Origin: an uncultured Bacillales bacterium
Lineage (GTDB): Bacteria; Bacillota_I; Bacilli_A; RF39; UBA660
Assembly: GCA_947564265.1 (NCBI GenBank)
Contig: CANOBK010000004.1
Location: 69,583-133,582 of the forward strand
Direction: 5' to 3'
DNA: 64,000 nucleotides
The notes beneath the pieces are model-generated. The model did not search any database. It was not told the DNA's origin and saw only the letters and a program-made list of their open reading frames with translations. Both the position numbers and the translations under genes were made by a program. Positions 12,401 through 32,688 of this stretch are shown here, piece by piece. Every line of letters starts with the position of its first letter. Within the stretch, counting starts at the first letter, position 1.

Positions 12401-12542
12401 TTTAAAAAGTTACTAGATTCATATCTAGTTTTTATTTTATAGGAATACTATTTATTTAGTGTTCCTATCTTTTTTTGTTTATAGGAAAATGATATAATAA
12501 TCTCACAGACAAATAGTAATTTGTAGGGAGGAGTATTATATT

Positions 12543-12647
12543 ATGGGAAAAATAAAAAAATTCTTTAAAGAGCATAAGAAAGCAATAGGCACTATCATAA
12601 TTTTAATTGGTGTAGTTGTTGCTTGTGCAATAAACTTATTATGGTAA
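12543..12647 (+). CDS. 34-aa Lys-rich/hydrophobic peptide (MGKIKKFFKEHKKAIGTIIILIGVVVACAINLLW)
   Basis: GGGAGGAG RBS 10 nt upstream, extended -10 TGATATAAT at ~12490, single TM; stop codon overlaps junction-module copy A. Confidence 0.4.
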   Translation: MGKIKKFFKEHKKAIGTIIILIGVVVACAINLLW

Positions 12648-12697
12648 ATTACAATTTAACGAGCAGACTAGAAATAGTTTGTTTTATAATGTATAAT
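12645..12697 (+). repeat. cassette-junction module copy A (box + hairpin + -10)
   Basis: TAAATTACAATTTAACGAGCAGACT, hairpin CAGACTA/TAGTTTG, then TTTTATAATGTATAAT. Confidence 0.8.
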
Positions 12698-12699
12698 TA

Positions 12700-12821
12700 A
12701 AATACAAAGTTAAAAACACAGTTCTGGTTGGTAGTCCAGACATAATAATTTTATTATTATCAGTAACCTGCCTCCTAAGGTTGTCCGTTCTTTGTATATT
12801 TTTTATAGGAGGTTAATTTGT
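12700..12821 (+). promoter_or_regulatory. structured 5' leader, candidate yjdF-type riboswitch
   Basis: Closing stem ATACAAAG (12702-12709) / CTTTGTAT (12790-12797), internal hairpins CTGG..CCAG and AACCT..AGGTT, anti-SD CCTCCT (12771-12776) versus RBS AGGAGG (12807-12812); lies upstream of a DUF2992/yjdF homolog. Confidence 0.5.
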
Positions 12822-13238
12822 ATGAATAAGGTACAAATTAAATTGACAGTCTTATTTGATGGTGCTTTTTGGATTGGTGTTTTTGAAAGAGTGATTGATA
12901 ATAAATTAGAAGTTGCTAAAGTTACTTTTGGGGCAGAGCCAAAAGATATAGAAATATATAACTTTATCTTAAATAAATATCAATATTTAAACTTTAGTAA
13001 TGGAATTTCTATAAATCAGAAAACACAAAAGGAAGTAAATCCTAAACGAATGCAAAGGTTTTTAAAAAAACAAGTTGATAAATCATTAGGAACAAAATCG
13101 CAACAAGCATTAAAACTTCAACAAGAACAACATAAAATAGATCGTAAATCTATATCTAAACAGAAAAAGGAAGAATTTTTAAAGTTAAAGTTTGAAATGA
13201 AACAAAAGAAAAGACAGCAAAAGCACAAAGGAAGATAA
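12822..13238 (+). CDS. DUF2992 (YjdF-like) protein
   Basis: TVLFDGAFWIGVFERV...FGAEPKDIEIYNFI...NPKRMQRFLKK plus Lys-rich tail; ATG 12822 has RBS AGGAGG, so the 12792 start in the ORF track is rejected. Confidence 0.7.
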   Translation: MNKVQIKLTVLFDGAFWIGVFERVIDNKLEVAKVTFGAEPKDIEIYNFILNKYQYLNFSNGISINQKTQKEVNPKRMQRFLKKQVDKSLGTKSQQALKLQQEQHKIDRKSISKQKKEEFLKLKFEMKQKKRQQKHKGR

Positions 13239-13270
13239 GACTTAAAGGATTTATTTTTTAAGTTCTTTTT

Positions 13271-13337
13271 AATTACAAATTACAATTTATAAAGCAGATC
13301 AACAGGTATAGAAGATTTGCTTTTTTCGTGGTATAAT
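13271..13337 (+). repeat. cassette-junction module copy B
   Basis: AATTACAAATTACAATTTATAAAGCAGATC, hairpin GCAGATC/GATTTGC, TTTTTT, extended -10 TGGTATAAT. Confidence 0.8.
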
Positions 13338-13393
13338 TATAAATGTAAATAGGACAAAAAATAGTAACTTGAAAGTGAGTTGAAGTAAGATAA

Positions 13394-13639
13394 ATGAATA
13401 TAAAAGGTGTGGAAAAAGATAAAGTAGATAAAGGTTTTGAATTATTTTATAATAACTTATCATATCGAAGAAAGTTCATTAGAACACTTTGGCTTATTCC
13501 AATTGGAATTGTAGTTGGAGCTATAATTTCTTATCTCAGTATAATCGTTTCATTATTTTATTGGCTATGGTTTATAATTGCTATAATCAAGCAATTAAAA
13601 TATAACTATACTATGTGGAAACAGAAAGCAGATAAATAA
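13394..13639 (+). CDS. small two-TM membrane protein
   Basis: 81 aa with two hydrophobic segments; leader shares GTTGAAGTAAGA with the 24109 gene; stop followed by degenerate box AAATTATAATTA (13638-13649). Confidence 0.6.
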   Translation: MNIKGVEKDKVDKGFELFYNNLSYRRKFIRTLWLIPIGIVVGAIISYLSIIVSLFYWLWFIIAIIKQLKYNYTMWKQKADK

Positions 13640-13796
13640 ATTATAATTAAGAAGGAAAAATAATAATTTGGCTATTATTAAAAAGTATATACCTAAAGTT
13701 ATATTATTTTTAATTTTAAATGGAAGTGATGTATATGGTTGCAGATTGATAATAATATCATGTTTATTATTTAAGAAAAATTAGTAAGGAGAATTT

Positions 13797-14450
13797 ATGG
13801 AGTATTTAATAACATTTGTAGAAGGATTAGCTTCTTTTATATCACCCTGTATTTTACCAGTTATTCCGATTTATATCTCTTATTTTGCTACTGAAAGTAA
13901 AAGTACAAAGAAATCTATTATTAACTCTATTGGTTTTGTTTCAGGATTTAGTATTATATTTATACTTTTGGGAGTATTTGCAGGTACATTTGGTGTGGTA
14001 ATACATAAATATTCAGATTATATCAATATTTTACTTGGATTATTTTTAATCGTTATAGGATTGAATTATATGGAAGTTATTATGGTTAAATTTTTAAATA
14101 AAACAAAAGGAATTCAACAGAATGATAAAGATTTGAATTTTATTACATCTATCTTGTTTGGTATCTTCTTTTCTTTATCATGGACTCCTTGTGTAGGTGC
14201 TTTTTTATCGTCAGCATTAATTCTTGCTAGTACAACAGGTAGTGTTTTAAAAGGTACAATTTTGTTATTGTTATATTCGTTAGGTTTAGCAATTCCTTTT
14301 TTAATAACAACGGTATTTATGGAAAGAGTAAAAAATACTTTTAACTTTATAAAAAAGCATTATAATATTATAAATAAAGTAGCAGGAAGTATTCTCGTTG
14401 TAAGTGGAATATGGAATATTGCAAATGGAATAATTGGAATTATGCGTTAG
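13797..14450 (+). CDS. ccdA: cytochrome c biogenesis / thiol-disulfide transporter, CcdA (DsbD_2) family
   Basis: Six TM segments; conserved Cys in SPCILPVIPIY and WTPCVGAF. Confidence 0.85.
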   Translation: MEYLITFVEGLASFISPCILPVIPIYISYFATESKSTKKSIINSIGFVSGFSIIFILLGVFAGTFGVVIHKYSDYINILLGLFLIVIGLNYMEVIMVKFLNKTKGIQQNDKDLNFITSILFGIFFSLSWTPCVGAFLSSALILASTTGSVLKGTILLLLYSLGLAIPFLITTVFMERVKNTFNFIKKHYNIINKVAGSILVVSGIWNIANGIIGIMR

Positions 14451-14462
14451 GAAGGTGTAAGA

Positions 14463-14900
14463 ATGAATAAAAAGAAAGTTAGTTTGATTATTGAAATCGT
14501 ATTGTTTGTATGTGCATTATTTGCGATAACAGGTATCTATTATTTTGGAGGAAATGATACTAAAATTGAAGAAGAAGCAGGAGAAGTTGGAATCGTCAAA
14601 GTAGATGATGATAATTTTCAGGAAGAAGTATTGAGTTCGGATAAGCCAGTAATCTTAGAATTCTCATCTAATAATTGCCCACCATGTTTAACTATGATTC
14701 CGACAATGATAAATATTGCTAAAAATAATAAGAATATAAAAGTTGCTTCTGTTAACTGTGATGATGACAATGTTTCTAAAATAGTAAAAGATTATCATAT
14801 TGATGCATATCCTACCATCTTTATAATCAAAGAAGGTCAGATTCAAAAAAGATTTGTTGGTGTTACGAGTGAAACAGCATTGTTAAGTGAAGCTCAATAG
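14463..14900 (+). CDS. membrane-anchored thioredoxin
   Basis: N-terminal TM plus thioredoxin fold with CPPC active site (SSNNCPPCLTM); adjacent to ccdA. Confidence 0.8.
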   Translation: MNKKKVSLIIEIVLFVCALFAITGIYYFGGNDTKIEEEAGEVGIVKVDDDNFQEEVLSSDKPVILEFSSNNCPPCLTMIPTMINIAKNNKNIKVASVNCDDDNVSKIVKDYHIDAYPTIFIIKEGQIQKRFVGVTSETALLSEAQ

Positions 14901-14911
14901 TGGAGGTATTT

Positions 14912-15319
14912 ATGAAAAAAAGACATATTGTTATGGTTACTGTATTAGTTTTATTCGCACTAATTATGTTTGGTATAAAAGACTCTAAAAATGTTAAAAA
15001 TTTAACTTGTACTGTAAATGGTGAATTTTTAAATATGGAAAGTTTAACCACTTTAAAAATTAAAGTAAAAGGGAATAAGATTAAAGATATGGATATTATT
15101 ATTGATGCTATTCTTCCAAAAGAATCTCTAGATCAGAAACAAGATTTAATAAATTCCTTTAATGCGAGTGGTAAAATGAAAGCAACAAGTACAAAAGAAG
15201 GAATTAGATTTCAAACAGGAATGTATAGTAATTATTTTAAGGCTTTGAAAATGAATACTAAATCGTCTTATAGTGATTTAAAAAGTACATTAGAATTAGA
15301 AGGATTTAGTTGTAAGTAA
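14912..15319 (+). CDS. membrane-anchored hypothetical protein
   Basis: ATG 14912 preceded by GGAGG; N-terminal TM VMVTVLVLFALIMFG; no recognised domain. Confidence 0.6.
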   Translation: MKKRHIVMVTVLVLFALIMFGIKDSKNVKNLTCTVNGEFLNMESLTTLKIKVKGNKIKDMDIIIDAILPKESLDQKQDLINSFNASGKMKATSTKEGIRFQTGMYSNYFKALKMNTKSSYSDLKSTLELEGFSCK

Positions 15320-15367
15320 TAATGGAAATATTTTAATGATGTCTTGCTAAAAAAATAGAAAAGTAAG

Positions 15368-15419
15368 TTTATAAAGCAGATTACTTCCTATAGAAAATCT
15401 GCTTTTTGCGTGCTATAAT
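15368..15419 (+). repeat. cassette-junction module copy C (box degenerate)
   Basis: TTTATAAAGCAGATT, perfect hairpin GCAGATT/AATCTGC, TTTTT, extended -10 TGCTATAAT. Confidence 0.75.
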
Positions 15420-15448
15420 AAAGAAAAATTAGCTATTTAGGTGATATT

Positions 15449-16777
15449 ATGAGTATTGAAAGTGATGTATTTAAGAGAAAAAAGGTTTGTTTTGATAAAT
15501 TAACAGCTTATGGATTTAAAAAAGAAGGATTGATTTATAAGTATTCAAAACCATTTTTGGATGACTTCAGAGCAGATATTGAAATTAATGAGCAGGGAGA
15601 GGTTTCTGGAATGGTTTATGACCTTACTATGGATGAAGAATATATAAATATTCGAATCGAAAGTCAAGTGGGAAGCTTTGTAAATCAAGTAAGGGAAGAG
15701 TACCAAAAAATTTTAGAAGATATTTCGGATCATTGTTTTGAAAAATTCTTTTTTATCACAGAGCAGGCCAACCGAATTGCAGGATCTATACGAAATTTGT
15801 ACCATGATGAACCAGAGTTTGCTTGGGAAAACTCTCCGGGATTTGGAATTTTTAGAAATCCTAGTAATGAAAAATGGTATGGATTAATTATGAATATTGA
15901 TAAGAGCAGAATTGATAAGAACGGTTCAGAAGAGGTAGAAATCATCAATGTAAAATTAGATCCTGAAAAAATTCAAAGGTTACTTTCTAATCGTGGATTT
16001 TATCCTGCTTATCATATGAATAAAAAGAACTGGATTACCATTCTTTTAGATGGTACTCTTTCTGATAATGAGGTGATGGAGTGTGTCAAAGAGAGTCACC
16101 AATATACAGAAAAAGGGGAGGAATGGATTGTTCCTGCGAATCCTAAATTCTATGATGTTATCTCAGATGTCCGTGATCATGATGTAATTACATGGAAACA
16201 ATCCAGCAATATTCAGGTTGGTGATTCTGTCTATTTATATGTTGGTGCTCCTTATTCTTCTATTCTTTGTAAATGCCAAGCACAAGAAGTAAATATTCCA
16301 TACGATTATCAGGATCATAATTTGTCTATGGAGAAAGTCATGAAATTAAAGGTACTAAAAAGATATCAACAGGATCAATATCCTTTTGCTAAACTAAATG
16401 AGTATGGAGTGAAGGCCATACGTGGTCCTAGAAGTATGCCTAAAAAATTAAGTGAAGTAATCAACCAAGAATCGAAAGTAGTAAATCAAATGAAAACAGA
16501 TTTGCTTACGATTCCTAATATTGGTAAAAATACAAAAGAAGATTTATTAAACTTAGGAATTACTTGTGTTGAGGATTTAAAGGGAAAAAATCCTGAAAAA
16601 CTTTATTTAGAAGATTGCAAAGTAAAAAAATATCAAGAGGATAGATGTCAATTATACGTATTTCGGATGGCAGTTTATTATGCAGAACATACTACTCATG
16701 AAAAAGAAAAGTTAAAATGGTGGTATTGGAAGGATAAAGAATATTTTAATGAAACAATTAAAGAGGACCAATTATAA
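15449..16777 (+). CDS. multidomain fusion: MmcQ/YjbR-like + PUA-like (EVE/ASCH-type) + helix-hairpin-helix C-terminus
   Basis: FGIFRNPSNEKWYGLIM...KKNWITILLDG (YjbR fold); WIVPANPKFYDV...GDSVYLYVG (PUA-like); LLTIPNIGKNTKEDLLNLGI (HhH). Confidence 0.55.
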   Translation: MSIESDVFKRKKVCFDKLTAYGFKKEGLIYKYSKPFLDDFRADIEINEQGEVSGMVYDLTMDEEYINIRIESQVGSFVNQVREEYQKILEDISDHCFEKFFFITEQANRIAGSIRNLYHDEPEFAWENSPGFGIFRNPSNEKWYGLIMNIDKSRIDKNGSEEVEIINVKLDPEKIQRLLSNRGFYPAYHMNKKNWITILLDGTLSDNEVMECVKESHQYTEKGEEWIVPANPKFYDVISDVRDHDVITWKQSSNIQVGDSVYLYVGAPYSSILCKCQAQEVNIPYDYQDHNLSMEKVMKLKVLKRYQQDQYPFAKLNEYGVKAIRGPRSMPKKLSEVINQESKVVNQMKTDLLTIPNIGKNTKEDLLNLGITCVEDLKGKNPEKLYLEDCKVKKYQEDRCQLYVFRMAVYYAEHTTHEKEKLKWWYWKDKEYFNETIKEDQL

Positions 16778-16892
16778 AAAAGTGGATAATGTTTGTTTAA
16801 AAAATTCTGTTAGATAAGCGAATGCAACTGAAAGTTGGTAGTTTTAAAATAATTTTTCGAATATGATAGAACATGAAAAGGAGGAATATCTA

Positions 16893-18066: not shown

Positions 18067-18093
18067 TGTAATATCAGTTATAATATAGAAATG

Positions 18094-18155
18094 AATTATT
18101 TATAAGCAGATCAACCGATATAGAAGATTTGCTTTTTTGTTCATGGTGTGATATT
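18094..18155 (+). repeat. cassette-junction module copy D (box partly deleted)
   Basis: AATTATTTATAAGCAGATCAACCGATATAGAAGATTTGCTTTTTT; stem and loop almost identical to copy B. Confidence 0.8.
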
Positions 18156-18272
18156 TATATAGAAAGATAGAAAATCTTAATTTATAGGGTAGATTATGAA
18201 AAATAATTTACTTTTTTAAATTCTATGGAACTTTTTTTAAAAAAATTCAACTATGATAGTGAGGTGAACAAA

Positions 18273-20221: not shown

Positions 20222-20242
20222 TAGTAAATGATTAATGAATGA

Positions 20243-22879: not shown

Positions 22880-22909
22880 TAAGATATAGAAAGAGAGGAT
22901 TGATTGATA

Positions 22910-23565: not shown

Positions 23566-24012
23566 ATGAATCAAATTAAAATTGGAAAATATATCCAACT
23601 AAAAAGAAAAGAAAAAAATATAACTCAGGAACAGCTTTCAGAAACATTAGGTGTATCAAACAAAACAATTTCAAAATGGGAGTGTGGAAAATCCCTTCCA
23701 GATTATTCTTTAGTTGAAATTTTATGTGATACATTAGAAGTGACTACCTCTGAATTATTTAACGGAGAAGATAGTGGATCAGATAAAAAAGCAATGATTG
23801 AAATGTTAGAGAAAATTCAAAACCTTGAAAATCAAAAAAACATCATGTTTGGAATATTGTTAATCATTTTAGGTATTGCCTGTCTTTGCCTATCACAACT
23901 TTTTAGCGGTAGTAACTTTAAAGAATTTATATCAGGAGTATTACTAGGACTATCGGTTGGCGAAATGTTAGTTGGAATATTTATAACAGCAAGTTCTATA
24001 ACGAAACAATAA
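23566..24012 (+). CDS. membrane-tethered XRE-family HTH regulator
   Basis: ITQEQLSETLGVSNKTISKWECG HTH plus two C-terminal TM segments. Confidence 0.75.
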   Translation: MNQIKIGKYIQLKRKEKNITQEQLSETLGVSNKTISKWECGKSLPDYSLVEILCDTLEVTTSELFNGEDSGSDKKAMIEMLEKIQNLENQKNIMFGILLIILGIACLCLSQLFSGSNFKEFISGVLLGLSVGEMLVGIFITASSITKQ

Positions 24013-24064
24013 ATTACAATTTATAGAACAAATCAATTTATAATCTGTTCTTTTTTGATATAAT
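24010..24064 (+). repeat. cassette-junction module copy E
   Basis: TAAATTACAATTTATAGAACAAATC..ATCTGTTCTTTTTTGATATAAT; box begins inside the stop codon. Confidence 0.8.
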
Positions 24065-24108
24065 GAGAGTGAAAGACAAATAGTAGTTTGTTAAGGAGTT
24101 GAAGTAAG

Positions 24109-24855
24109 ATGAATGAATATATCAATTTGAATTTAGAAAACATTGATAATGAGCATATATGTTGTGCTATTGGTGATCCTAAACATCAATGTGGTGTAGA
24201 TAATAAAAAAGAATGGATAAAAAGTAAATTAAAAGATGGTCATGTATTTAGAAAATTAAATGCTAGAGGTAAAATATTCATTGAGTATGAGCCAATAGAA
24301 ACAGCATGGGTTCCTATTAGTGGTAAAAACTATGAATATATTTATTGTTTATGGGTAGCAGGTAGTTTTAAAGGAAAAGGCATTGCAAAAGAATTATTAG
24401 AATATGCTATCAATGATTCTAAAGAAAAAGGTATGAGTGGAATTTGCACTTTAACTTCTAAAAAGAAAAAACCATTTATTGGAGAAAAGAAATTTTTTGA
24501 ACATTACGGTTTTAAAGTAGTAGATACAGTTGGAGATTATGAATTATTGGTATTACAATTTGATAATAATGAAATACCAAAATTTAATGATAATGCAAGA
24601 AATATGAAAATTGATAGTGAAGATTTTACAATCTATTACAGTCCTGAATGTCCTTATGTGGAATACGAAGTAAAAGAATTATCAGAATATGCAAAAGAAA
24701 AGAATATCAAGATTAACTTTATAAAGGTTGATACATTGGAAAAAGCGAAGAATGTTCCTTGTATATTCAATAACTGGGCTAACTTTTATAAAGGTGAATT
24801 TGTTTCAAATACAATATTAAATGCAAATTCATTTGAAAAATTAGTGAGTAAATAA
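24109..24855 (+). CDS. GNAT N-acetyltransferase with YoaP-like C-terminal domain
   Basis: GNAT core LWVAGSFKGKGIAKELLEYAI; C-terminal IYYSPECPYVEYEV...NFIKVDT resembles the YoaP domain. Confidence 0.7.
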   Translation: MNEYINLNLENIDNEHICCAIGDPKHQCGVDNKKEWIKSKLKDGHVFRKLNARGKIFIEYEPIETAWVPISGKNYEYIYCLWVAGSFKGKGIAKELLEYAINDSKEKGMSGICTLTSKKKKPFIGEKKFFEHYGFKVVDTVGDYELLVLQFDNNEIPKFNDNARNMKIDSEDFTIYYSPECPYVEYEVKELSEYAKEKNIKINFIKVDTLEKAKNVPCIFNNWANFYKGEFVSNTILNANSFEKLVSK

Positions 24856-24856
24856 G

Positions 24857-25741
24857 ATGGAGTTTATAAAAGCAAAAACCATTCTTTCCAAAGTAAAATA
24901 TGGTAATGAATGGTATGGTATTGATTATAATATGAATCTTTATAGAGGTTGTTCTCATAGATGTATCTATTGTGATAGTAGAAGTAATTGTTATCACATA
25001 GATAATTTCGATATAGTTAGAGGTAAAGAAAATGCACTATATATTTTAGAAAAAGAATTATGTAAAAAACGAGAAAAAGGAGTTATTGGAATTGGAGCAG
25101 TGTCTGATCCCTATAATCCTTTGGAAAAAGAATTTGAACAAACACGAGGAGCACTAAAACTTATTTCAAAATATGGATTTGGTGTTTCTATTGATACTAA
25201 AAGTGATTTGATTTTAAGAGATATAGATTTATTAAAAGAAATAAATTTAAAAAATAATGTTATTATAAAATTTACTATAACTACACCAAATGATGAATTA
25301 TCAAAAATAATAGAGCCAGGAGTCTCTTCATCTTCTAAAAGATTACAAGCCATAAAAAAATTATCTGATAATGGAATATATGTGGGTATTATGATGAATC
25401 CTGTTTTACCATTTATTACTGCCAACGAAGAAGATATAAAGAAATTAGTTAAACTTGCTAGTGAATCAGGGGCTAAATTTATTCATACCTATATGGGAAT
25501 GACTTTAAGGGAAAATCAAAGAGATTATTATTATGATAAGTTAGATCAAAACTTTGTAGGATTAAAGGAAAAATATATTAAGTATTATGGAGATAGATAT
25601 AATTGTATTGCTCCTAATTATAAAATATTATATAAAATATTTACTGATGAATGCGACAAGTATGGAATCTTATATAATATGAATGATATTATTAAAGCAT
25701 ATAAAAAAATTAAAAGTAATGAACAAATATCATTGTTTTAG
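24857..25741 (+). CDS. radical SAM protein (SplB/Rv2578c-like family)
   Basis: CSHRCIYC CxxxCxxC cluster motif near the N-terminus; 1-nt gap after the GNAT gene. Confidence 0.75.
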   Translation: MEFIKAKTILSKVKYGNEWYGIDYNMNLYRGCSHRCIYCDSRSNCYHIDNFDIVRGKENALYILEKELCKKREKGVIGIGAVSDPYNPLEKEFEQTRGALKLISKYGFGVSIDTKSDLILRDIDLLKEINLKNNVIIKFTITTPNDELSKIIEPGVSSSSKRLQAIKKLSDNGIYVGIMMNPVLPFITANEEDIKKLVKLASESGAKFIHTYMGMTLRENQRDYYYDKLDQNFVGLKEKYIKYYGDRYNCIAPNYKILYKIFTDECDKYGILYNMNDIIKAYKKIKSNEQISLF

Positions 25742-25744
25742 AAT

Positions 25745-25760
25745 TGCAAATTACAATTTA
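25745..25760 (+). repeat. cassette-junction box only (copy F)
   Basis: TGCAAATTACAATTTA directly followed by RBS GGAG; no hairpin. Confidence 0.65.
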
Positions 25761-25771
25761 GGAGTGTGTAT

Positions 25772-26140
25772 ATGGTAAAATCTAATATAAAAAAAGAATT
25801 TAATTGTAATATAGAAAAATTATGGAGTGTTATCACAGATAATACAAAATATGCTTGGAGAAGTGACTTATCTAAAATAGAAATAATAGATGATAAACAT
25901 TTTATAGAATATGCAAAAAATAATTTTCCAACTTATTTTATAATTACTTCAAAACAGAAATTTAAAGAGTATAAATTTGATATAGAAAATGCAAATATAA
26001 AAGGAAAATGGATAGGTTTGTTTAAAAAACTGCCGAATGGAAATGTAGAACTAGATTTTACAGAAGAAATAGAAACAAATAATTGCATTATGAAATTATT
26101 AGCAAAACCATATTTAAAAAGTATGCAAAAAAATATATGA
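25772..26140 (+). CDS. SRPBCC-superfamily protein, 3' end apparently shifted at an A7 run
   Basis: Size and pattern (KLWSVITDNTKYAWRSDL) fit SRPBCC; the -1 frame continues KYMRDLEKEVNE to TAA 26167-26169, which abuts box copy G. Confidence 0.6.
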   Translation: MVKSNIKKEFNCNIEKLWSVITDNTKYAWRSDLSKIEIIDDKHFIEYAKNNFPTYFIITSKQKFKEYKFDIENANIKGKWIGLFKKLPNGNVELDFTEEIETNNCIMKLLAKPYLKSMQKNI

Positions 26141-26169
26141 GAGATTTAGAAAAAGAAGTAAATGAGTAA

Positions 26170-26186
26170 TTCAAATTACAAAATGA
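26170..26186 (+). repeat. cassette-junction box only, degenerate (copy G)
   Basis: TTCAAATTACAAAATGA; same TAA-TTCAAATTACAA context as copy H. Confidence 0.55.
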
Positions 26187-26203
26187 AAGATAGATGATGT
26201 ATT

Positions 26204-26623
26204 ATGAATTTAAAGAAAATAGAAAATTTTATTGATAAACAAAAAGTTAGTTTTATATGTTCTATTGATAATGAAAATTATCCTAATTTAAAAGCAATGC
26301 TTAAACCTAGAAAAAGAATAGGAATAAAAGAATTTTATTTTTCTACTAATACTTCATCTATGAGAGTAAAACAGTATCAAAATAATCCAAATGCAAGTAT
26401 ATACTTTTATCATAAAGGATTCATTAAATATGTAGGTGTTATGTTAAAAGGTCAAATGGAAGTATTAACAGATCAGGAAACTAAAAATATGATTTGGAAA
26501 AAGAGAGATACCATGTTTTATAAAAAAGGTGTAACTGATCCAGATTATTGTGTTTTAAAATTTACTGCTACAAGTGGTAGATATTATTGCGATTTAAAAA
26601 CAGAAAATTTTGATATAGAGTAA
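26204..26623 (+). CDS. pyridoxamine 5'-phosphate oxidase-like FMN-binding protein
   Basis: 139 aa; pattern VSFICSIDNENYPNLKAM...ASIYFY...MLKGQMEVLTD fits the PNPOx split-barrel / general stress protein 26 family. Confidence 0.6.
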   Translation: MNLKKIENFIDKQKVSFICSIDNENYPNLKAMLKPRKRIGIKEFYFSTNTSSMRVKQYQNNPNASIYFYHKGFIKYVGVMLKGQMEVLTDQETKNMIWKKRDTMFYKKGVTDPDYCVLKFTATSGRYYCDLKTENFDIE

Positions 26624-26672
26624 TTCAAATTACAATTTATAGAGCAGATCATGAAAAATGATTTGTTTTTTT
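26621..26672 (+). repeat. cassette-junction module copy H
   Basis: TAATTCAAATTACAATTTATAGAGCAGATCAT..ATGATTTGTTTTTTT. Confidence 0.8.
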
Positions 26673-26691
26673 ATGTTTGAATTTTAATATA

Positions 26692-26730
26692 TTGACAACT
26701 GTATATATTCTGTATATAATGTATATACAC
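26692..26730 (+). promoter_or_regulatory. sigma-A-type promoter with overlapping triple TGTATATA operator-like repeats
   Basis: TTGACA (26692-26697), 17 nt, TATAAT (26715-26720); TGTATATA at 26700, 26711 and 26720; palindrome GTATATAC at 26721-26728. Confidence 0.6.
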
Positions 26731-26744
26731 AAAAGAGGTGAGTT

Positions 26745-27122
26745 ATGGAAATTATTATAAGTAATTCAAGTGGAGTTCCTATATATGAACAGATAAAAGA
26801 ACAAATTAAAGTAAAGATTGTATCTAATGAATTACAAGCAGGTGAATTATTACCATCAATAAGAACCTTAGCAAAAGATTTAAGATGTAGTGTAATAACC
26901 ACTAAAAATGCTTATGAAGAATTAGTAAAAGATGGTTATGTTAGGAATGTTCCATCTAAAGGATTTTATGTGGCAGAGGTTAATAAGGAAGTTGCTCATG
27001 AAGAACAGTTAAATAAAATAGAGGGATTGTTAGATTCAGCCGTTACTATTGCTAAAATGAATAATATCTCTAAAAAGACTATGAATGAGATGTTAGATAT
27101 ATTGTATGAGGAGGAAAAATAA
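26745..27122 (+). CDS. GntR-family (YtrA-type) transcriptional regulator
   Basis: Winged HTH LPSIRTLAKDLRCSVITTKNAYEELVKDGYV; short effector region; TAATG coupling to the ABC ATPase. Confidence 0.85.
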   Translation: MEIIISNSSGVPIYEQIKEQIKVKIVSNELQAGELLPSIRTLAKDLRCSVITTKNAYEELVKDGYVRNVPSKGFYVAEVNKEVAHEEQLNKIEGLLDSAVTIAKMNNISKKTMNEMLDILYEEEK

Positions 27123-27979
27123 TGGAAAATATATTAGAAGTAAAAAATTTATCTAAAAAGTATACAGGTTTTGAATTAAAAAATATTAGTTTTGAATTAC
27201 CAAAAGGAATGATTATGGGTTTTATTGGCGAAAATGGAGCAGGAAAAACTACGACAATTAAAGCAATTTTAGACATAATTAAGAATTATACTGGTGAAAT
27301 TAAAGTATTTGGTCTTGATAACAGAAAAGATGATAAGAAAATAAAAGAAGATGTTGGTGTAGTATTAGATGATATGTTCTTTCCAGAAATCCTAATACCA
27401 AATGATATAAATAGCATTATGAAAGATACCTATAAAAATTGGGATTCTAATCTTTACTTTAAGTATTTATCAGATTTTGATTTACCTAAAAATAAACAAA
27501 TAAAAACCTTTTCTAAAGGTATGAGAAAAAAATTGGAAATAGCCACAGCTCTTTCACACCATCCAAAATTGTTGATTCTTGATGAGCCGACAAGTGGACT
27601 TGATCCGATTGCTCGTAATGAAGTAATAGATATTTTTCAAGACTTTATTCAAAATGAAGAATGTTCCATTCTTTTATCAAGCCATATTACAACAGATTTG
27701 GAACACATTGCAGATTATATAACTTTTATTAATAATGGCGAAATACTGTTGCAAAAAACTTGTGATGAATTATTAGGAAAATATGGAATTGTAAAATGTA
27801 CAGAATCAGAATTTAAAAAGATGGATAAAAGTGATTTTATTAAATATAGGAAAACTAAATATGAATATGAAGTATTGGTAGAAAATAAAAAAGAATTTAG
27901 TAAAAAATATGGTAATAATACAATAGATAAGATAACACTTGAGGATCTTATGGTATTAATGATTAAAGGGGTGAAATAA
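27122..27979 (+). CDS. ABC transporter ATP-binding protein
   Basis: Walker A GENGAGKTT, signature FSKGMRKK, Walker B LLILDEPTSGLD. Confidence 0.9.
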   Translation: MENILEVKNLSKKYTGFELKNISFELPKGMIMGFIGENGAGKTTTIKAILDIIKNYTGEIKVFGLDNRKDDKKIKEDVGVVLDDMFFPEILIPNDINSIMKDTYKNWDSNLYFKYLSDFDLPKNKQIKTFSKGMRKKLEIATALSHHPKLLILDEPTSGLDPIARNEVIDIFQDFIQNEECSILLSSHITTDLEHIADYITFINNGEILLQKTCDELLGKYGIVKCTESEFKKMDKSDFIKYRKTKYEYEVLVENKKEFSKKYGNNTIDKITLEDLMVLMIKGVK

Positions 27980-28611
27980 TGTTAGGGTTAATAAAAAAAG
28001 ATTTATTGATGATTAAAAGTAATTTGAAGATTTTAGTAATTTTATTGTTTGTATATGGGTTTATGACTTATCAAGGTGAAATGAGTTTATTATTTGTATT
28101 ACCATTTATGAGCGTAATGATAATGATTTCAACTTTTAGCTATGATACTTATAATAAATGGGATGCTTATGTTTGTTCCTTACCAGATGGAAGAAAAAAT
28201 AGTGTTAGAGCAAAGTATTTAGCTACTATTCTATTAATTATTGCAACTACAATAATTATAACAATACTTTCAGTAGTAATTTCTTATATTCAAACTAAGG
28301 TAATAGATTTTGAAAATATTTTTTCTACAATATTTGGAGCTGTTTTTGCTACTGCTTTACTACAATCTTTTATGTATCCATCAATTTATAAGTTTGGTGT
28401 AGAAAAAGCAAGAATTGGAATATTTATAGTAGTATTTGGAGGTGCTATTATTTGTGGTATTATTTCTCAATTTGTTGATTTTAAACCACTACTTCAAGCA
28501 TTAGATATTCTAGAAAATTATTGGATGATTATATTTCCACTAGCTATTATAGTAATATTATACTTATCTTATAAAATATCTGGGTGTATATATAAGAAAA
28601 AGGAATATTAA
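27979..28611 (+). CDS. ABC-2 type transporter permease
   Basis: About 6 TM segments; TAATG coupling to the ATPase gene. Confidence 0.75.
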   Translation: MLGLIKKDLLMIKSNLKILVILLFVYGFMTYQGEMSLLFVLPFMSVMIMISTFSYDTYNKWDAYVCSLPDGRKNSVRAKYLATILLIIATTIIITILSVVISYIQTKVIDFENIFSTIFGAVFATALLQSFMYPSIYKFGVEKARIGIFIVVFGGAIICGIISQFVDFKPLLQALDILENYWMIIFPLAIIVILYLSYKISGCIYKKKEY

Positions 28612-28629
28612 CATAGGAGAATAATAGAT

Positions 28630-28695
28630 ATGAATGAAAAAAATGTGAAAAATATACCTAATGGACTGTCTTTTGAATATAAGTGGAACAATTAA
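28630..28695 (+). CDS. possible 21-aa ORF (MNEKNVKNIPNGLSFEYKWNN)
   Basis: RBS TAGGAG 8 nt upstream; stop codon abuts junction box copy M; may be a remnant. Confidence 0.25.
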   Translation: MNEKNVKNIPNGLSFEYKWNN

Positions 28696-28714
28696 ATAAA
28701 TAACAATTTAACGA
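28693..28714 (+). repeat. cassette-junction box only (copy M, A/I subfamily)
   Basis: TAAATAAATAACAATTTAACGA resembles TAAATTACAATTTAACGA of copies A and I; no hairpin. Confidence 0.55.
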
Positions 28715-28728
28715 TTAGAGGTGCAATT

Positions 28729-29178
28729 ATGGATTATGATAAATTAGAAATTGAAACGGTTTTTAAAGATGGAAATATGATTCCAATAGAATATACTGGA
28801 TATGGAAAAAATATATCTCCAGAATTTAAAATTAAAAATCTATCACCTAATGCAAAAAGTCTAGTAATAATATTAGAAGATCTAAGCCATCCAATTAAGA
28901 ATTTTACACATTGGATTGCTTGGAACATAAAAGCAGAATCTATAATTCCAGAAAATGTTGGTAACATGAACAATGTGATACAGGGAATTGCTTATGGATT
29001 TCATAAGTATGCAGGAGCAAAACCTCCAATATTCCAAAAACACTATTATAGATATACGATATGTTCATTAGATGATACTTTAAACTTATCATCTAATAGT
29101 ATGAAAAAGAAGTTATTAAAAACAATAGAAGGGCATATTTTGCAAAAAGGAACTATTACTGGTTATTTTAAAAAATAA
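28729..29178 (+). CDS. PEBP (YbhB/YbcL) family protein
   Basis: SPEFKIKNLSPNAKSLVIILEDLS...HWIAWNI...HYYRYTICSLD follows the PEBP pattern. Confidence 0.7.
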   Translation: MDYDKLEIETVFKDGNMIPIEYTGYGKNISPEFKIKNLSPNAKSLVIILEDLSHPIKNFTHWIAWNIKAESIIPENVGNMNNVIQGIAYGFHKYAGAKPPIFQKHYYRYTICSLDDTLNLSSNSMKKKLLKTIEGHILQKGTITGYFKK

Positions 29179-29235
29179 ATAAATTACAATTTAACGAGCA
29201 GACTTATCTTGTTTGCTTTTTTTTATGCTATAATT
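29179..29235 (+). repeat. cassette-junction module copy I
   Basis: ATAAATTACAATTTAACGAGCAGACT, hairpin AGCAGAC/GTTTGCT, T8, extended -10 TGCTATAAT; 25 nt identical to copy A. Confidence 0.85.
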
Positions 29236-29271
29236 AAAATAATATATATCAACTTGAATGGGGGAAATTAA

Positions 29272-30605
29272 ATGGAACAGCAATCATTATTCGAAAATAT
29301 ATTGAATGAGCCTTTGGCTTCAAGAATGCGACCAAGAACTTTAGAAGAATTTGTTGGACAACAACATTTGATAGGGGAAAATAAGATTTTAAGAAAAATT
29401 ATTGAAAGTGATCATGTTTCCTCTATGATATTTTGGGGTCCTCCTGGTGTAGGAAAAACAACTCTTGCTAAAATTATCGCTACTCAAACGGAATCAGAAT
29501 TTATTACGTTTTCAGCTGTAACAGCAGGAATTAAAGAAATAAAAAAGTAATGGAGGATGCAGATTATAATAAAAAATTAGGAATCAAGACAATTGTGTTT
29601 GTAGATGAAATTCATAGATTCAATAAGGCACAACAAGATGCCTTTTTACCATTTGTTGAAAAAGGTTCTATTGTTTTGATAGGAGCAACAACAGAAAATC
29701 CATCTTTTGAAGTAAATAATGCTTTACTTTCAAGATGTAGAGTATTTGTTTTAAAAGAATTATCCAGTGATGATATTTTGATTTTACTTAAAAGAGCTAT
29801 TAAAGATAAAAGGGGCTTTGGAAATGAAACAATCAATATTGGTGAGGAAGATTTAAAAATCATTGCTGAATTTGCGAATGGAGATGCAAGAAGTGCTTTG
29901 ACAACTCTTGACATGATTTTAATAAATGGGGATAGTGATAAAGATGGGAAAATCAATATTTCTAAAAATACAATAGAAGAATGCTTAACCAAGAAGACTT
30001 TACTTTACGATAAAAACGGAGAAGAACACTATAATATTATTTCGGCGCTTCATAAATCTATGAGAAATAGTGATCCAGATGCTGCTGTTTACTGGTTAGC
30101 AAGAATGTTAGAGGCTGGAGAAGACCCTATTTATATTGCGAGGAGAATTACCAGGTTTGCTTCAGAAGATATCGGCCTTGCTGATACGAACGCTTTAAAT
30201 GTAGCAATTAATGTGTATCATGCCTGTCATTTTATAGGAATGCCAGAGTGTAATGTTCATTTAACAGAGGCAGTTATCTATATGTCTTTAGCCCCTAAAT
30301 CCAATTCTTGCGATATTGCTTATCAGTTAGCTTCAAAAGACGCTAAAGAAATGTTATCAGAACCTGTTCCACTAGTAATTAGGAATGCTCCAACGAGACT
30401 TATGAAAGAGCTAAATTATGGAAAAGGTTATCAATTCGCCCATGATACGAAAGAGAAATTGACTACAATGGATTGTTTGCCATCCTCTTTACTTGGAAAA
30501 ATATATTACTATCCTGGCATTCAAGGAAATGAAATTAGATTTAAAGAAAGATTAGAACAAATCAAAAAATGGAAGCAAACAAATAAAAAGGAAGAGGAAA
30601 AATAA
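29272..30605 (+). pseudogene. rarA: replication-associated recombination protein A (AAA+), split by a -1 frame change at an A6 run
   Basis: ORF1 carries Walker A GPPGVGKTT and ends IKEIKK-TAA (29548-29550); ORF2 starts in TAATG and carries Walker B VFVDEIHRFNK and the MgsA C-terminal domain; one extra A restores KEIKKVMEDA. Confidence 0.85.
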
Positions 30606-30628
30606 GATATTGGGAGCGAAAGGAAATC

Positions 30629-31090
30629 ATGAAGAAAGTAATTTTAATCGTATTATGCATTTTACTGTGTGGGTGTCAGAAAGATTTAGATACTAAGATA
30701 GATACTGGAGTAGATAAGGAGGTTCCTATGGAAAAAAATGAATTAAAAATTAGTTTAACAATTCGTAATGAAACGTTGATGGCTACTTTAGAAGATAACG
30801 AAACAGCAAAAAAATTTGCTGAACAATTACCTATTTCTATATCAATGAGTGAACTAAATGGAAATGAAAAATATTATTATTTTAATACTTCTTTTCCTAA
30901 TCATCCTACCCAAGTAAATAGGATAAATTCAGGAGATCTGATGTTATTTGGTAGTGACTGTTTCGTTTTGTTTTATGATGACTTTGATACAAATTATAGT
31001 TATACAAGAATTGGAACAATCGATCATCCAGATAGAATTAAAGAGATTGTTGGAACTGGAGATGTAGAGGTTTTTATTTCTAAAGAATAA
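30629..31090 (+). CDS. lipoprotein with cyclophilin-like domain
   Basis: Lipobox LLCGC; LTIRNETLMATLEDNETAKKFAEQLP...GDLMLFGSDCFVLFYDDF matches the cyclophilin-like family pattern. Confidence 0.6.
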   Translation: MKKVILIVLCILLCGCQKDLDTKIDTGVDKEVPMEKNELKISLTIRNETLMATLEDNETAKKFAEQLPISISMSELNGNEKYYYFNTSFPNHPTQVNRINSGDLMLFGSDCFVLFYDDFDTNYSYTRIGTIDHPDRIKEIVGTGDVEVFISKE

Positions 31091-31140
31091 ATTTACAATC
31101 GAAAATAGGATGGATAAGTAGTCGAAAGAGGAGAAAAAAT

Positions 31141-32178
31141 ATGAGAAAGCAGTATTTAGATAATATAAAAACAATTGCAATTTTACTTTTGTTTCCTTAC
31201 CATACTTTTATGATCTGGAATAATTTTGGTACAAAATTTTATATATGGGGTGGAGAGAATGATTTTCTAAGTTCTTTGATTGTACTAGTCAGTCCATGGC
31301 TTATGCCTGTTTTATTTGTTATTGCTGGTATATCAGCAAGATATTCCTTAGCGAAGAGGACGACTAAAGAATTTATCAAAGAACGGATTTGGAAATTACT
31401 ACTCCCTTTTTTGAGTGGACTCCTCTTCCTTGTTCCTTTTCAAACACTGTATGCACGTAAGTTCTTTTTTGATTATCATGGTGGAATTTTAGAGAATTTT
31501 AAATACTTTTTTACTCATTTTTCGGATTTCAATGGCTATGATGGAATGTTTACGTTAGGTCATTTATGGTTTTTATTTTATTTGTTTTTAATCTCTATTT
31601 TAACATTCCCATTGTTAAGAAAACAAGTTTCTAAAAAATGGGGGAGTAAAATCAATCTCATTTCAATGATATTACTGTTTATTCCAATATTTCTTGTTTA
31701 TCCTATTGGGAATTTTGGAGGACAAAGTGTGGGAAAATATTTATTATTATATCTAATAGGGTATTATTTATTTCAGGATTCAGTGGTAGAAAAATTAATC
31801 AGTGGAAAGTTTTTTATTTTATTACTCTTTTTTGTTTCTGAAGCAATCTTAGTAGTCCTATATTTTAAGTATCGTTATTATGGGGATTTATTGGTAAATT
31901 TTGTTGGTTGGCTAGGAGTACTATCTTGTATTATTTTGGGAAGATTATTTTTAAATAAAGAAAATAGAATTACTCATTATTTTAAGAATGCCTCTTTTTC
32001 CATCTATCTTCTTCATCAAACTATTTTAATATTTATTGGTTATTATTCTCTTCGATTTATCAATCATCTTATTTTACAAATATTCATTATTCTTTGTACT
32101 AGTTTTTTAGTGACAATCCTATTTTATGAGATTTTTAGGAGGACTCCTGTGATAAAGCGAATCCTAGGAATTCATTGA
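31141..32178 (+). CDS. acyltransferase family 3 membrane protein
   Basis: About 10 TM segments; N-terminus YLDNIKTIAILLLFPYHTF typical of Acyl_transf_3. Confidence 0.75.
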   Translation: MRKQYLDNIKTIAILLLFPYHTFMIWNNFGTKFYIWGGENDFLSSLIVLVSPWLMPVLFVIAGISARYSLAKRTTKEFIKERIWKLLLPFLSGLLFLVPFQTLYARKFFFDYHGGILENFKYFFTHFSDFNGYDGMFTLGHLWFLFYLFLISILTFPLLRKQVSKKWGSKINLISMILLFIPIFLVYPIGNFGGQSVGKYLLLYLIGYYLFQDSVVEKLISGKFFILLLFFVSEAILVVLYFKYRYYGDLLVNFVGWLGVLSCIILGRLFLNKENRITHYFKNASFSIYLLHQTILIFIGYYSLRFINHLILQIFIILCTSFLVTILFYEIFRRTPVIKRILGIH

Positions 32179-32192
32179 ATTTTTCTCTATCA

Positions 32193-32237
32193 GGCAAATC
32201 GAAGATTTTAGTCGATTTGTCTTTTTCATGTTATAAT
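32193..32237 (+). terminator. terminator fused to extended -10 promoter
   Basis: CAAATCGA/TCGATTTG perfect 8-bp stem, CTTTTT, then TGTTATAAT (32229-32237). Confidence 0.7.
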
Positions 32238-32279
32238 TATACATAGATAAGAATTTAATCATTCATTGGAGGTTTAAAA

Positions 32280-32618
32280 ATGAAAGTAATTACTGTTTGT
32301 GGAAGCTTAAAGTATAAAGAGGAAATGATGGATTCTGCAATGATGCTAGAACTAGCAGGAAATGTTGTTTTAATTCCTATTTTTCCAATCAGTCATGATA
32401 CAAGTTATCTGTCAGAGGAAGATTTTCAAATTCTAGGTAATATGCATAAAGAAAAAATAAGATTATCTGATGCTATTTTTGTTGTAGATGTAGATGGATA
32501 TATAGGAAATAGTACGAAGAGTGAAATTGCATTTGCTAAAAAGTTACACAAAGAAATTCTTTATTATAGTGATTTCAAAAAAGAAGATTCTACGATTTTA
32601 GCCGAAGAAATCAATTAG
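32280..32618 (+). CDS. small Rossmann-like protein (nucleoside 2-deoxyribosyltransferase-like)
   Basis: MKVITVCGSLKY...SDAIFVVDVDGYIGNSTKSEIAFAKKLHKEI follows the pattern of that superfamily; assignment from memory only. Confidence 0.4.
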   Translation: MKVITVCGSLKYKEEMMDSAMMLELAGNVVLIPIFPISHDTSYLSEEDFQILGNMHKEKIRLSDAIFVVDVDGYIGNSTKSEIAFAKKLHKEILYYSDFKKEDSTILAEEIN

Positions 32619-32688
32619 AACTTATATTTGTAATTGTAATCGTTTTTAATTTATGTTAATTTAAATGAAAGAGAGTGAGGAAGTAGAT

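Follow-up and report, generated by a model that had tools for sequence, protein, structure and literature searches.

A 13-nucleotide (nt) sequence, AAATTACAATTTA, here called the box, recurs at gene junctions in a 64,000-nt stretch of DNA (the window) from contig CANOBK010000004.1 of an uncultured Bacillales bacterium, and homology between related loci repeatedly begins and ends at it. We give somewhat better than even odds to the reading that small gene units are moved by a site-specific recombination that acts in trans and has its crossover at the box. A fuller picture, to which we give slightly less than an even chance, is that of a cassette-capture system of gut Bacillota analogous to integrons, with a recombinase acting in trans, a near-palindromic site of 13 to 16 bp with an asymmetric center, and units, with or without a built-in terminator and promoter, that are exchanged between the chromosomes, conjugative elements, and phages of both Bacilli and Clostridia. 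The chance that this cassette array with its new site represents a new system in its own right is substantial. Labels of the form L### designate related loci and contigs from other genomes, metagenomes, and phages.

The window contains six exact copies of the box, all on the + strand (starting at 12646, 13277, 24011, 25748, 26627, and 29181), against an expectation of 0.07 and a maximum of 1 in shuffled sequence. These copies are confined to the interval from 12.6 to 29.2 kb, and the remaining ~47 kb holds none. One additional copy carries a single mismatch (28698) and another is decayed (~26173). When two mismatches were allowed, the number of matches was not significant (34 in the window versus 24.7 expected), and the degenerate copies that an initial annotation of this DNA had placed at 13638 and 31089 are no better than such chance matches. 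Every exact copy in the window begins at, or a few nt from, the upstream stop codon, as that annotation had described. Across all the sequences gathered at the time of counting, a same-strand open reading frame (ORF) ended near 92 of 168 exact boxes, and for 65 of these 92 the box started between −2 and +7 nt from the stop codon. The one-directional layout that had also been emphasized holds in that all boxes lie on the + strand, but it is not special: the same strand holds almost all genes of the 64 kb, and GC skew is positive throughout.

The palindrome (A)(T/C)AAATT-AC-AATTT(A)(T), of 7-2-7 form and asymmetric at its center, has the box as its core. Positions flanking the 13-mer are also conserved (A at −2 in 65% of copies, C or T at −1 in 84%, and T at +13 in 68%), and the symmetry therefore extends to 7-2-7 around AC. 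Natural variants of the box differ at position 5 (T/A), at position 13 (A/G/T), and at the center (AC/GT). An inverted variant of the box, AAATAGTAATTTG, in which GT replaces the AC center and one further position differs from the inverted box, lies just 3′ of the −10 element at 12511, 13359, and 24078 in the form AAATAGTA(A/G)(T/C)TTG. In many places the left half of the box is duplicated immediately upstream, giving AATTAC-AAATTACAATTTA (window 13271-13289; L121 ~2020-2050; L136 ~5960; L101 ~2726), and hexamers such as TAATAC, AATAAC, and AATTAC are over-represented upstream of it. This half-box duplication might belong to the site or be a scar left by recombination.

To locate the limits of shared sequence, we compared all loci against one another. 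Of 256 internal homology end-points, 68 fell within 15 nt of a box and 30 fell inside it, whereas random placement put 4.5 end-points near a box (maximum of 10 in 200 trials), an enrichment of ~15-fold. Individual gains and replacements follow the same boundaries. L121 is 99.3% identical to the window on both sides of an extra unit of ~929 bp, encoding HxlR and a lumazine-binding-fold protein, which sits exactly after the box at 29181 and has a box at each end. Relative to L130, L131 contains a 645-bp XRE unit inserted at the box upstream of a relaxase gene, with a 13-bp duplication. Between L131 and L136, a beta-lactamase-fold gene and a 148-amino-acid (aa) gene are exchanged for a PdaC-type deacetylase gene; the left breakpoint of this replacement lies 4 nt after an inverted box variant and the right one at the box. 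The check proposed in the initial annotation, whether presence/absence breakpoints fall exactly at the box, was thereby borne out by L121 against the window, by L131 against L130, and by the end-point enrichment. The cleanest joints come from independently sampled contigs that are otherwise nearly identical; there the two parents have nothing in common but the 13-mer, a length insufficient both for RecA-type recombination and for assembly chimeras. The same polymorphisms were seen in independent samples and assemblers.

Entire units also recur from box to box at other loci. A 483-bp PEBP unit is 99.6% identical between L131, an integrative and conjugative element (ICE), and L132, a chromosomal-type array. 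This unit has at least five different neighbors on each side elsewhere, and its neighbors differ among the window, L012, L121, L134, and L136; the window copy (28719-29180) matches L012, where a radical-SAM gene directly precedes it, and in the window three units stand between the two. The window unit containing a riboswitch and a DUF2992 gene (12645-13288) is 94.7% identical to a sequence in L101, box to box. The GNAT and radical-SAM unit (24051/24093-25759) is homologous to L011 and L012, with the homology ending at the box, and the unit of a 122-aa gene (25748-26181) is found in L069 with two flanking boxes and unrelated neighbors. The GntR-ABC unit has 77% identity to a unit in L028, L031, L044, L045, L116, and L118. 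XRE units likewise recur box to box, shared by L060 and L086 and by L086 and L102.

The 13-mer alone is the constant element of these junctions. The three-part module that the initial annotation took as the unit (box, hairpin, and extended −10 promoter) is one of several junction types, and its hairpin and promoter travel with the downstream gene. In the promoter type, the order is box, 2 to 4 nt, hairpin with the 5′ arm (G)AGCAGAT(C), T-run, TGnTATAAT, ~15 nt, AAATAGTAATTTG, and ribosome binding site (RBS); the spacing from box to inverted variant is 53 to 57 nt in 10 of 12 copies, and 13277-13371 and 24011-24090 are examples in the window. In the box-only type, represented by about 20 clear cases including 25748 and 28698, the box ends in A or G and is directly followed by the RBS (often GAAAGTGAG) and start codon. 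A third type has TGTAATTCACTAGATTTATAGTAATTTG between the box and the RBS. The earlier tally of at least seven full copies in the window was accordingly too high: there are six exact boxes, but box, hairpin, and TGnTATAAT occur together only at 13277, 24011, and 29181. Among the other sites that had been listed as copies, 12646 combines its hairpin with a plain TATAAT and 26627 with a separate TTGACA-17-TATAAT (26692-26720), those at 15368 and 18094 have no box, and 25748, 28698, and 26173 are box-only junctions directly before an RBS. Hairpins with a T-run lie 3′ of the boxes at 12646, 13277, 24011, 26627, and 29181, and two hairpins of the same family stand without a box (15375-15403 and 18105-18133); TGnTATAAT starts at 13329, 15411, 24056, and 29226.

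When 37 module copies from many genomes were aligned, the hairpin stem proved to be kept, with compensatory changes at three pairs; at two stem positions, G-U on the + strand is more frequent than any other state (at one of them, G-U 23, G-C 11, and A-U 3). The kept stem, its compensatory changes, and the frequent G-U pairs on the + strand therefore support the earlier suggestion that the hairpin is a terminator, probably an ordinary intrinsic one that would act as RNA. The companion proposals, that the box itself has no role in termination and that the layout recalls cassettes, gain support from the breakpoints at the box. At the Rfam gathering score, no family covered the junction modules in the window or in 10 related loci; the only matches were tRNA and the azaaromatic (yjdF) riboswitch in the window and a DUF3800-VII RNA in L028, away from boxes. 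A full-text search of one literature library with the 13-mer in both orientations, with 12-mers from it, and with the inverted variant returned no relevant paper, only unrelated eukaryotic and viral matches of primer type, and a literature search on integron-like systems in Firmicutes and Erysipelotrichales likewise returned nothing relevant, in keeping with the initial remark that the module was not recognized as a described element. A scan for consensus promoters and terminators was uninformative in DNA of 27% GC. Two alternative roles for the junction were rejected. The ~55 bp between box and inverted variant leave too little room for an invertible promoter, and none of 12 copies was in an inverted state; pairing between the box and sequence 3′ of it in the manner of attC is not conserved.

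To determine how widely the box occurs, one genome per GTDB species was scanned with the box plus a degenerate hairpin start as the query, a search that had been recommended in the initial annotation. At least 118 loci were recovered, a few of which are chance matches in unrelated AT-rich genomes, and at least 59 distinct box copies are followed by a hairpin and T-run. Many loci contain several co-oriented boxes. Most of the source genomes are gut or rumen metagenome-assembled genomes (MAGs) labeled as Bacilli, Tenericutes/Mollicutes, Mycoplasmatota, Erysipelotrichales, Anaeroplasma, Clostridia, or Oscillospiraceae; a few matches in Akkermansia and Saccharibacteria MAGs are probably mis-binned. 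Among IMG/VR viral contigs, only six matches were found, four of them in related contigs, and the box is therefore not phage specific.

Box-bounded units are present in three kinds of replicon: the chromosome (the window), the cargo regions of ICEs and integrative and mobilizable elements (IMEs), and phages. The box-bearing ICEs and IMEs carry MobA/VirD2-type and Mob_Pre relaxases, coupling proteins, DUF3991-Toprim proteins, NikA/MobC, and large serine recombinases. In the phage contig L124, Pfam matches identify a sigma-factor gene that, with a gene for a 244-aa partner and a box after them, is located between terminase and portal genes. The same arrangement, with a sigma factor of the extracytoplasmic function (ECF) type, was noted in several IMG/VR phage contigs (L124 5253-6600, L125 3101-5247, L126, and L128), and L125 has an extra two-gene unit between two boxes. 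Helix-turn-helix (HTH) proteins of the XRE type with multiple transmembrane segments are the commonest cargo near boxes, counted as 35 ORFs in 22 loci; the window encodes four of them. Contigs of 250 to 550 kb contain dense arrays of single-gene units of 0.3 to 0.7 kb with junctions of ~30 nt, and their content differs between samples; the genes include those for low-molecular-weight phosphatase, GNATs, PNPOx, DUF6194, DUF188, GrpB, lipase, hydrolase, and Fic proteins. Defense genes abut some arrays, namely BrxC/PglY, DUF4007 with PAPS reductase, an SLFN-like helicase, and a PLD-SNF2 protein (L143 15838-20420; L144 15961-20420).

Resistance-type cargo comprises an Erm-family methyltransferase, a beta-lactamase-fold protein, and chloramphenicol acetyltransferase, the gene for the last being called near one array. 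The Erm-family 23S rRNA methyltransferase passes the broad NCBIfam Erm model and is closest to Erm(42). An element consisting of the Erm gene, a box, and the GntR-ABC unit is 99.4 to 100% identical in six species-representative MAGs (L118 53-3200; L028, L031, L044, L045, and L116). The element ends with ...CACCCGCTCCA, 136 nt after a box variant, and its flanks differ in each genome. This 136-nt end contains a promoter-like TGGTATATT and a well-folding stretch of 73 nt (z = −2.96). The RNA-like end had no Rfam match, an E-value scan returning only chance matches, and neither the array nor the Erm element had a meaningful megablast match among PLSDB plasmids. The DUF3800-VII RNA of L028 (5508-5603, − strand, 71.7 bits) lies a few kb from this element.

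Recombination at the box would account for these observations as follows. A unit would extend from one box to the next, ending 0 to 5 nt after the stop codon, and would contain either an RBS and one or more ORFs or its own terminator, extended −10 promoter, inverted variant, and ORF(s), with the inverted variant at about +6 to +18 as judged from the −10 element. An excised unit, probably in circular form, would recombine conservatively through its box with any box already in place, and after insertion would again have a box on both sides. Because neither the units nor the DNA beside the arrays encode the enzyme, it would act in trans, with the host or the conjugative elements that carry the same units as its possible source. 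The promoter, possibly together with an operator formed by the inverted variant, would make a unit expressible in any context, and polarity would come from the asymmetric AC center (GT in the inverted variant), as it does at the sites of serine recombinases. This reading draws on the 13-bp joints, the exact duplication of the box around inserts, the trimming of units close to their ORFs, and the sharing of units across replicon types; the presence of boxes on the chromosome, in ICE/IME cargo, and in phages argues for a function supplied in trans.

Several observations weigh against it, among them those from the search for the enzyme. No recombinase or Phage_integrase domain was found in Pfam scans of 70 window ORFs (nearly all those of at least 90 aa up to ~51.5 kb), in agreement with the initial annotation, and a regex screen of the 118 listed loci found only three tyrosine-recombinase-like ORFs. 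Large serine recombinases occur in nine loci at 1 to 4 kb from boxes, with no clear relation to them. In a ~5-kb element bearing such a gene (L015 and L017), the right junction lies inside the HTH-coding part of two XRE genes and not at a box. In a second box-bearing ICE family, the DNA immediately before the relaxase gene is coding and lacks a box. With 13 conserved positions and a left flank that varies, the site itself falls short of the length of well-studied serine- and tyrosine-recombinase sites. An RBS invariably follows directly on the box or its inverted variant, and the leader GAAAGTGAG...ATG after the box is also common to unrelated units; expression could thus be the reason why the box is conserved, and recombination would merely take place wherever homology exists. 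Enzyme-free slippage between 13-bp direct repeats could cause the loss of single units, and neither a circular form nor an excision joint was seen. The loci were found with the box plus part of the hairpin, which biases the downstream consensus, and most of the evidence comes from MAGs and metagenome contigs.

Other features of the enzyme search concern particular candidates. No recombinase was consistently located beside arrays in the related loci, and a tyrosine recombinase adjoining arrays was rejected because only the three ORFs mentioned above were found. Large serine recombinases are enriched near boxes, and the ends of their genes have no box-like sequences; they score 97 to 147 bits, compared with Ccr cut-offs of 900. 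The ~5-kb element (L015 1138-6317; L017 905-6074) encodes a 582-aa large serine recombinase at its right end, and its left homology boundary is a box in three contexts. MobA/VirD2-type relaxases were found near boxes in six loci, Mob_Pre in one scanned locus (its cluster spans three), and coupling proteins in four. In one ICE family, the relaxase gene starts 52 to 85 nt downstream of the last box, and cargo units have accumulated exactly there; the box is not generally an origin of transfer (oriT), given the family without a box before the relaxase. XRE proteins with long C termini, considered as hidden recombinases, are multi-pass membrane proteins instead, and unannotated array ORFs resemble lipoproteins or membrane proteins.

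The principal rival to a dedicated enzyme, unlikely in our view but with a real claim, is short-homology recombination at a shared expression leader, performed by RecA, annealing proteins, or slippage. Phages and ICEs often carry annealing recombinases. Under this explanation, the box with its RBS leader, or the whole terminator-promoter module of ~80 to 110 nt, would be kept for context-independent expression, and the units would share nothing else. Its precedent is the composite terminator/promoter motif of T4-type phages, at which homologous recombination mediates indels, replacements, and mini-circles (PMC2839356, PMC4122927); the promoter-type junction is just such a composite. Conservation of the RBS leader and the terminator stem in addition to the box, the one breakpoint at an inverted variant rather than a box, and the failure of the window Pfam scans and the regex screen to find a recombinase all fit it as well. 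However, the cleanest joints share the 13-mer alone, between unrelated flanks, far below the usual homology requirement, and breakpoints are not scattered through the 80- to 110-nt modules but include 30 end-points inside the 13-mer. Nor does short homology explain why units are trimmed 0 to 5 nt after a stop codon or why the same 13-mer accompanies unrelated genes. A special case of site-specific recombination, attractive but in our view improbable, would have the box serve as the nick and strand-transfer site of an HUH (histidine-hydrophobic-histidine) enzyme, a relaxase or Rep-like protein from the ICEs or IMEs. Transfer would start at one box and stop at the next, releasing a single-stranded unit to be rejoined at another box. 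A strand-specific motif of ~13 nt with variable flanks and direct orientation fits single-strand recognition by HUH nucleases, and relaxases, the Mob_Pre "plasmid recombination enzyme," and coupling proteins do occur near boxes, as does the accumulation of cargo upstream of the relaxase gene in one ICE family. Against these points stand the ICE family without a box before its relaxase gene, the box-only junctions without an adjacent inverted repeat, and the hairpin, which pairs best as + strand RNA since its G-U pairs become A-C mismatches on the other DNA strand; Pfam scans of the window ORFs found no relaxase.

A purely regulatory role, in which the box and its inverted variant are XRE operators or a translational enhancer and the breakpoints merely mark gene starts, would make sense of the recurrence of membrane-anchored XRE proteins near boxes and of the constant place of the box directly 5′ of the RBS in box-only junctions. 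The inverted variant, moreover, is set within a near-palindrome, ACAAATAGTAATTTGT, right after the −10 element, and its 53- to 57-nt distance from the box is typical of paired operators. Invariance at 13 of 13 positions over more than 100 copies in different bacterial classes would nonetheless be unexpected for an operator, as would exact duplication at both ends of inserted units and a place upstream of the terminator, at the 3′ end of the preceding transcript; furthermore, breakpoints lie in the motif itself and not just anywhere between genes. A regulatory role may well coexist with recombination, but alone it cannot explain the duplications around inserts, and we consider its chances as the sole function to be slim. 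Very remote, finally, is the explanation that the modules reflect a lineage-typical terminator/promoter style or an artifact of metagenome assembly or binning. Many contigs do begin or end at a module, showing that modules break assemblies, and the matches in implausible taxa (Akkermansia and Saccharibacteria) point in the same direction. Yet a 13-bp repeat is shorter than assembler k-mers and cannot create chimeric joins, the same polymorphisms appear independently, and the ~47 kb of the window outside the array, including the core genes infB, murC, rnc, and rnj, has no box, contrary to the lineage-wide terminator style in core operons that the initial annotation had named as the outcome that would overturn its proposal.

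Among known systems, the arrays work like those of integrons yet fall outside integrons on every sequence-level test of membership. Integrons are the standard model for the stockpiling and reshuffling of single genes by bacteria. Complete integrons were lacking in all Firmicutes and Tenericutes genomes examined in a published survey (PMC4889954). The box arrays resemble integrons and clusters of attC sites lacking integrases (CALINs) in being one-directional, in consisting of small, mostly single-gene, unrelated units trimmed close to their ORFs, and in having a conserved site at each junction that starts at or in the stop codon; many units are promoterless, and content varies between strains, with breakpoints at the site. 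Some box arrays have no nearby recombinase, as in CALINs, and the cargo of GNATs, small enzymes, and resistance genes is likewise integron-like. Unlike in integrons, no IntI, attI, or Pc is found here, and the site is a fixed 13-mer rather than a structured attC of 57 to 141 bp with R″ (RYYYAAC) and R′ (GTTRRRY) cores: the junction AAATTACAATTTA has no GTTRRRY core, and breakpoints lie at the 5′ box. The crossover is at the 5′ edge of the regulatory module, so that the module moves with the downstream gene, many units have their own terminator and promoter, and the hosts are Bacillota.

Tests of membership also place the system outside staphylococcal cassette chromosome (SCC) islands, pdif modules, miniature inverted-repeat transposable elements (MITEs), and tRNA-targeting islands. 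SCC elements, mobilized by the large serine recombinases CcrAB or CcrC, are tandem units between short direct repeats downstream of a conserved gene; many lack a recombinase and are moved in trans, and only one side of their sites is conserved. The box arrays share with them tandem accretion at short direct repeats, and distant Ccr relatives occur near some arrays, once as a tandem pair. Here, however, units measure 0.3 to 3 kb versus 3 to 60 kb in SCC, and the repeat is unrelated to the rlmH-end sequence. Neither ccrAB nor ccrC was found in the window, the serine recombinases in nine loci are far below the Ccr cut-offs and not positioned at boxes, and the array lies between tRNA-Met and rarA, with the box as its repeat, instead of at the 3′ end of rlmH. 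The pdif modules of Acinetobacter plasmids and other Xer elements are accessory modules between short sites that are served in trans by a host enzyme, with no nearby recombinase. The pdif site is 28 bp long, with an 11-6-11 structure for XerC/XerD, and is inverted, whereas the box has a 2-bp center, arms of ~7 bp, and direct orientation; its conserved positions span ~16 bp around the center, with variable flanks. The Rci/sfx shufflons and the vpma and vsa systems of mycoplasmas use short sites with one conserved arm or sites in the conserved 5′ leader of a gene family, and Mollicutes are relatives of the box hosts. Those systems switch expression by inversion within one gene family and have an adjacent tyrosine recombinase, unlike the box arrays, which gain or lose unrelated genes in direct orientation with no adjacent recombinase.

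The promoter early stem-loops (PeSLs) of T4-type phages combine a terminator stem-loop and a promoter between small accessory ORFs in hyperplastic regions, where indels and replacements are bounded by the motif and mini-circles have been proposed as vectors (PMC2839356, PMC4122927). The junctions at 13277, 24011, and 29181 are similar composites of a stem-loop terminator, with covariation in the stem, and a sigma-70-type promoter. PeSLs recombine by homology over the whole motif and belong to one phage group; in contrast, the constant element here is 13 bp, many junctions have no hairpin or promoter, and units cross chromosomes, ICEs, and phages of different bacterial classes. Putative mobile promoters ("promoter reuse") are promoter regions of high similarity that precede unrelated genes in the same or in different genomes; the work on them describes the pattern only, with no junction site, cassette boundaries, or arrays (PMC3575422). 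The units also differ from MITEs and repetitive extragenic palindromic (REP)-type elements, being coding, bounded by direct box repeats, and without inverted ends. As for tRNA-targeting islands, the 3′ end of tRNA-Met is not repeated at the junctions on direct reading of the sequence, and no integrase was found in the window scans.

If recombination at the box is confirmed, it would constitute a second, independent route to cassette arrays, in abundant and mostly uncultured gut Bacillota. It would account for the exchange of identical small genes, such as the Erm unit, among the chromosomes, ICEs, and phages of human and animal guts, provide in the box a simple sequence tag for mobile genes and hotspots in metagenomes, and point to a recombinase with a compact target that is a potential tool. 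If homology drives the exchange instead, the PeSL principle would be extended to bacterial chromosomes and conjugative elements.

Within the window, the array extends from just after tRNA-Met to rarA/mgsA (29272-30605), and its GC content (24.8 to 28.7%) contrasts with 29 to 33% in most of the flanking DNA and 29.8% in the window overall. The region is flanked by infB, murC, a two-component system, rnc, and rnj, and the window DNA is therefore chromosomal; its MurC protein falls into a cluster, at 90% identity, with a protein of a MAG labeled Bacilli bacterium. The junctions and cassettes are listed from left to right in Table 1. The tRNA-Met boundary, the inverted variants, and the hairpin with TGTTATAAT that forms the last junction had gone unmentioned in the initial annotation, and the SRPBCC label once given to the 122-aa protein found no counterpart among Pfam families. 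PNPOx relatives elsewhere are preceded by the inverted box variant. A module similar to the one upstream of rarA/mgsA occurs in L100, ending 37 nt upstream of an unannotated ORF (142 aa) that runs off the end of the locus.

Table 1. Junctions, cassettes, and left boundary of the array in the window
Feature	Coordinates	Strand	Details
tRNA-Met (CAT), left array boundary	12324..12400	+	ARAGORN; Rfam RF00005
First promoter-type junction, no 5′ box	12439..12523	+	Hairpin 12439-12468, TGATATAAT 12490-12498, inverted variant AAATAGTAATTTG 12511-12523
34-aa hydrophobic peptide ORF, first cassette	12543..12647	+	Stop codon overlaps box
Box, hairpin, T-run, plain TATAAT	12646..12697	+	Box 12646-12658, hairpin 12663-12682; leads into riboswitch/DUF2992 unit
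Azaaromatic (yjdF) riboswitch, then DUF2992 gene	12700-12804, 12822-13238	+	
Half-box, box, hairpin, extended −10, inverted variant	13271..13371	+	AATTAC half-box, box 13277-13289, hairpin 13293-13321, TGGTATAAT 13329-13337, inverted variant 13359-13371
Hairpin and extended −10	15375..15419	+	Hairpin 15375-15403, TGCTATAAT 15411-15419; box decayed, only TTTA left
Decayed box, hairpin, T-run	18094..18140	+	Decayed box GAATTATTTA, hairpin 18105-18133
Complete promoter-type junction	24011..24090	+	Box 24011-24023, hairpin 24025-24051, TGATATAAT 24056-24064, inverted variant 24078-24090
GNAT and radical-SAM genes	24109-25741	+	Downstream of junction 24011..24090
Box-only junction	25748..25760	+	GGAG RBS directly after box; precedes 122-aa gene 25772-26140
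Decayed box AAATTACAAAATG	26173..26185	+	Precedes PNPOx gene 26204-26623
Box, hairpin, separate promoter	26627..26720	+	Box 26627-26639, hairpin 26644-26666, TTGACA-17-TATAAT 26692-26720; precedes GntR and ABC transporter genes 26745-28611
Box variant AAATAACAATTTA, box-only junction	28698..28710	+	Precedes PEBP gene 28729-29178
Box, hairpin, extended −10	29181..29234	+	Box 29181-29193, hairpin 29197-29217, TGCTATAAT 29226-29234; upstream of rarA/mgsA
Last module-like junction, no box	32188..32237	+	Hairpin of same family and TGTTATAAT

Additional features of the window and of related sequences were noted. The 34-aa peptide of the first cassette has the sequence MGKIKKFFKEHKKAIGTIIILIGVVVACAINLLW and might be a small membrane toxin or a leader peptide; a box-flanked relative adjoins the relaxase gene in L012 (4750-4898). 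The rarA/mgsA region is read as two ORFs, a 92-aa N-terminal part containing the Walker A region and a 351-aa C-terminal part, which overlap at ATGA. The same split is present in the independent assembly L120 and could reflect either a frameshift pseudogene or a genuine split gene. A 64-bp segment of the window (32123-32186), bordered by short CTAT repeats and closely preceding the last hairpin/promoter module, is absent from L120, which is otherwise 99.8 to 100% identical. To the left of the array, the − strand at 9837-11176 is highly repetitive, with a 9-nt period and collagen-like G-X-Y repeat ORFs whose calls are interrupted. In Clostridium hydrogenum CUEA01, a palindromic, multi-copy repeat of ~250 to 330 bp has a box and TCGAGCAGAGTACAG in both arms (L046 2424-2670 and 6605-6851; L049, L052, and L090); it may be unrelated, as a chance match multiplied by copy number, or else a relative of the junction module.

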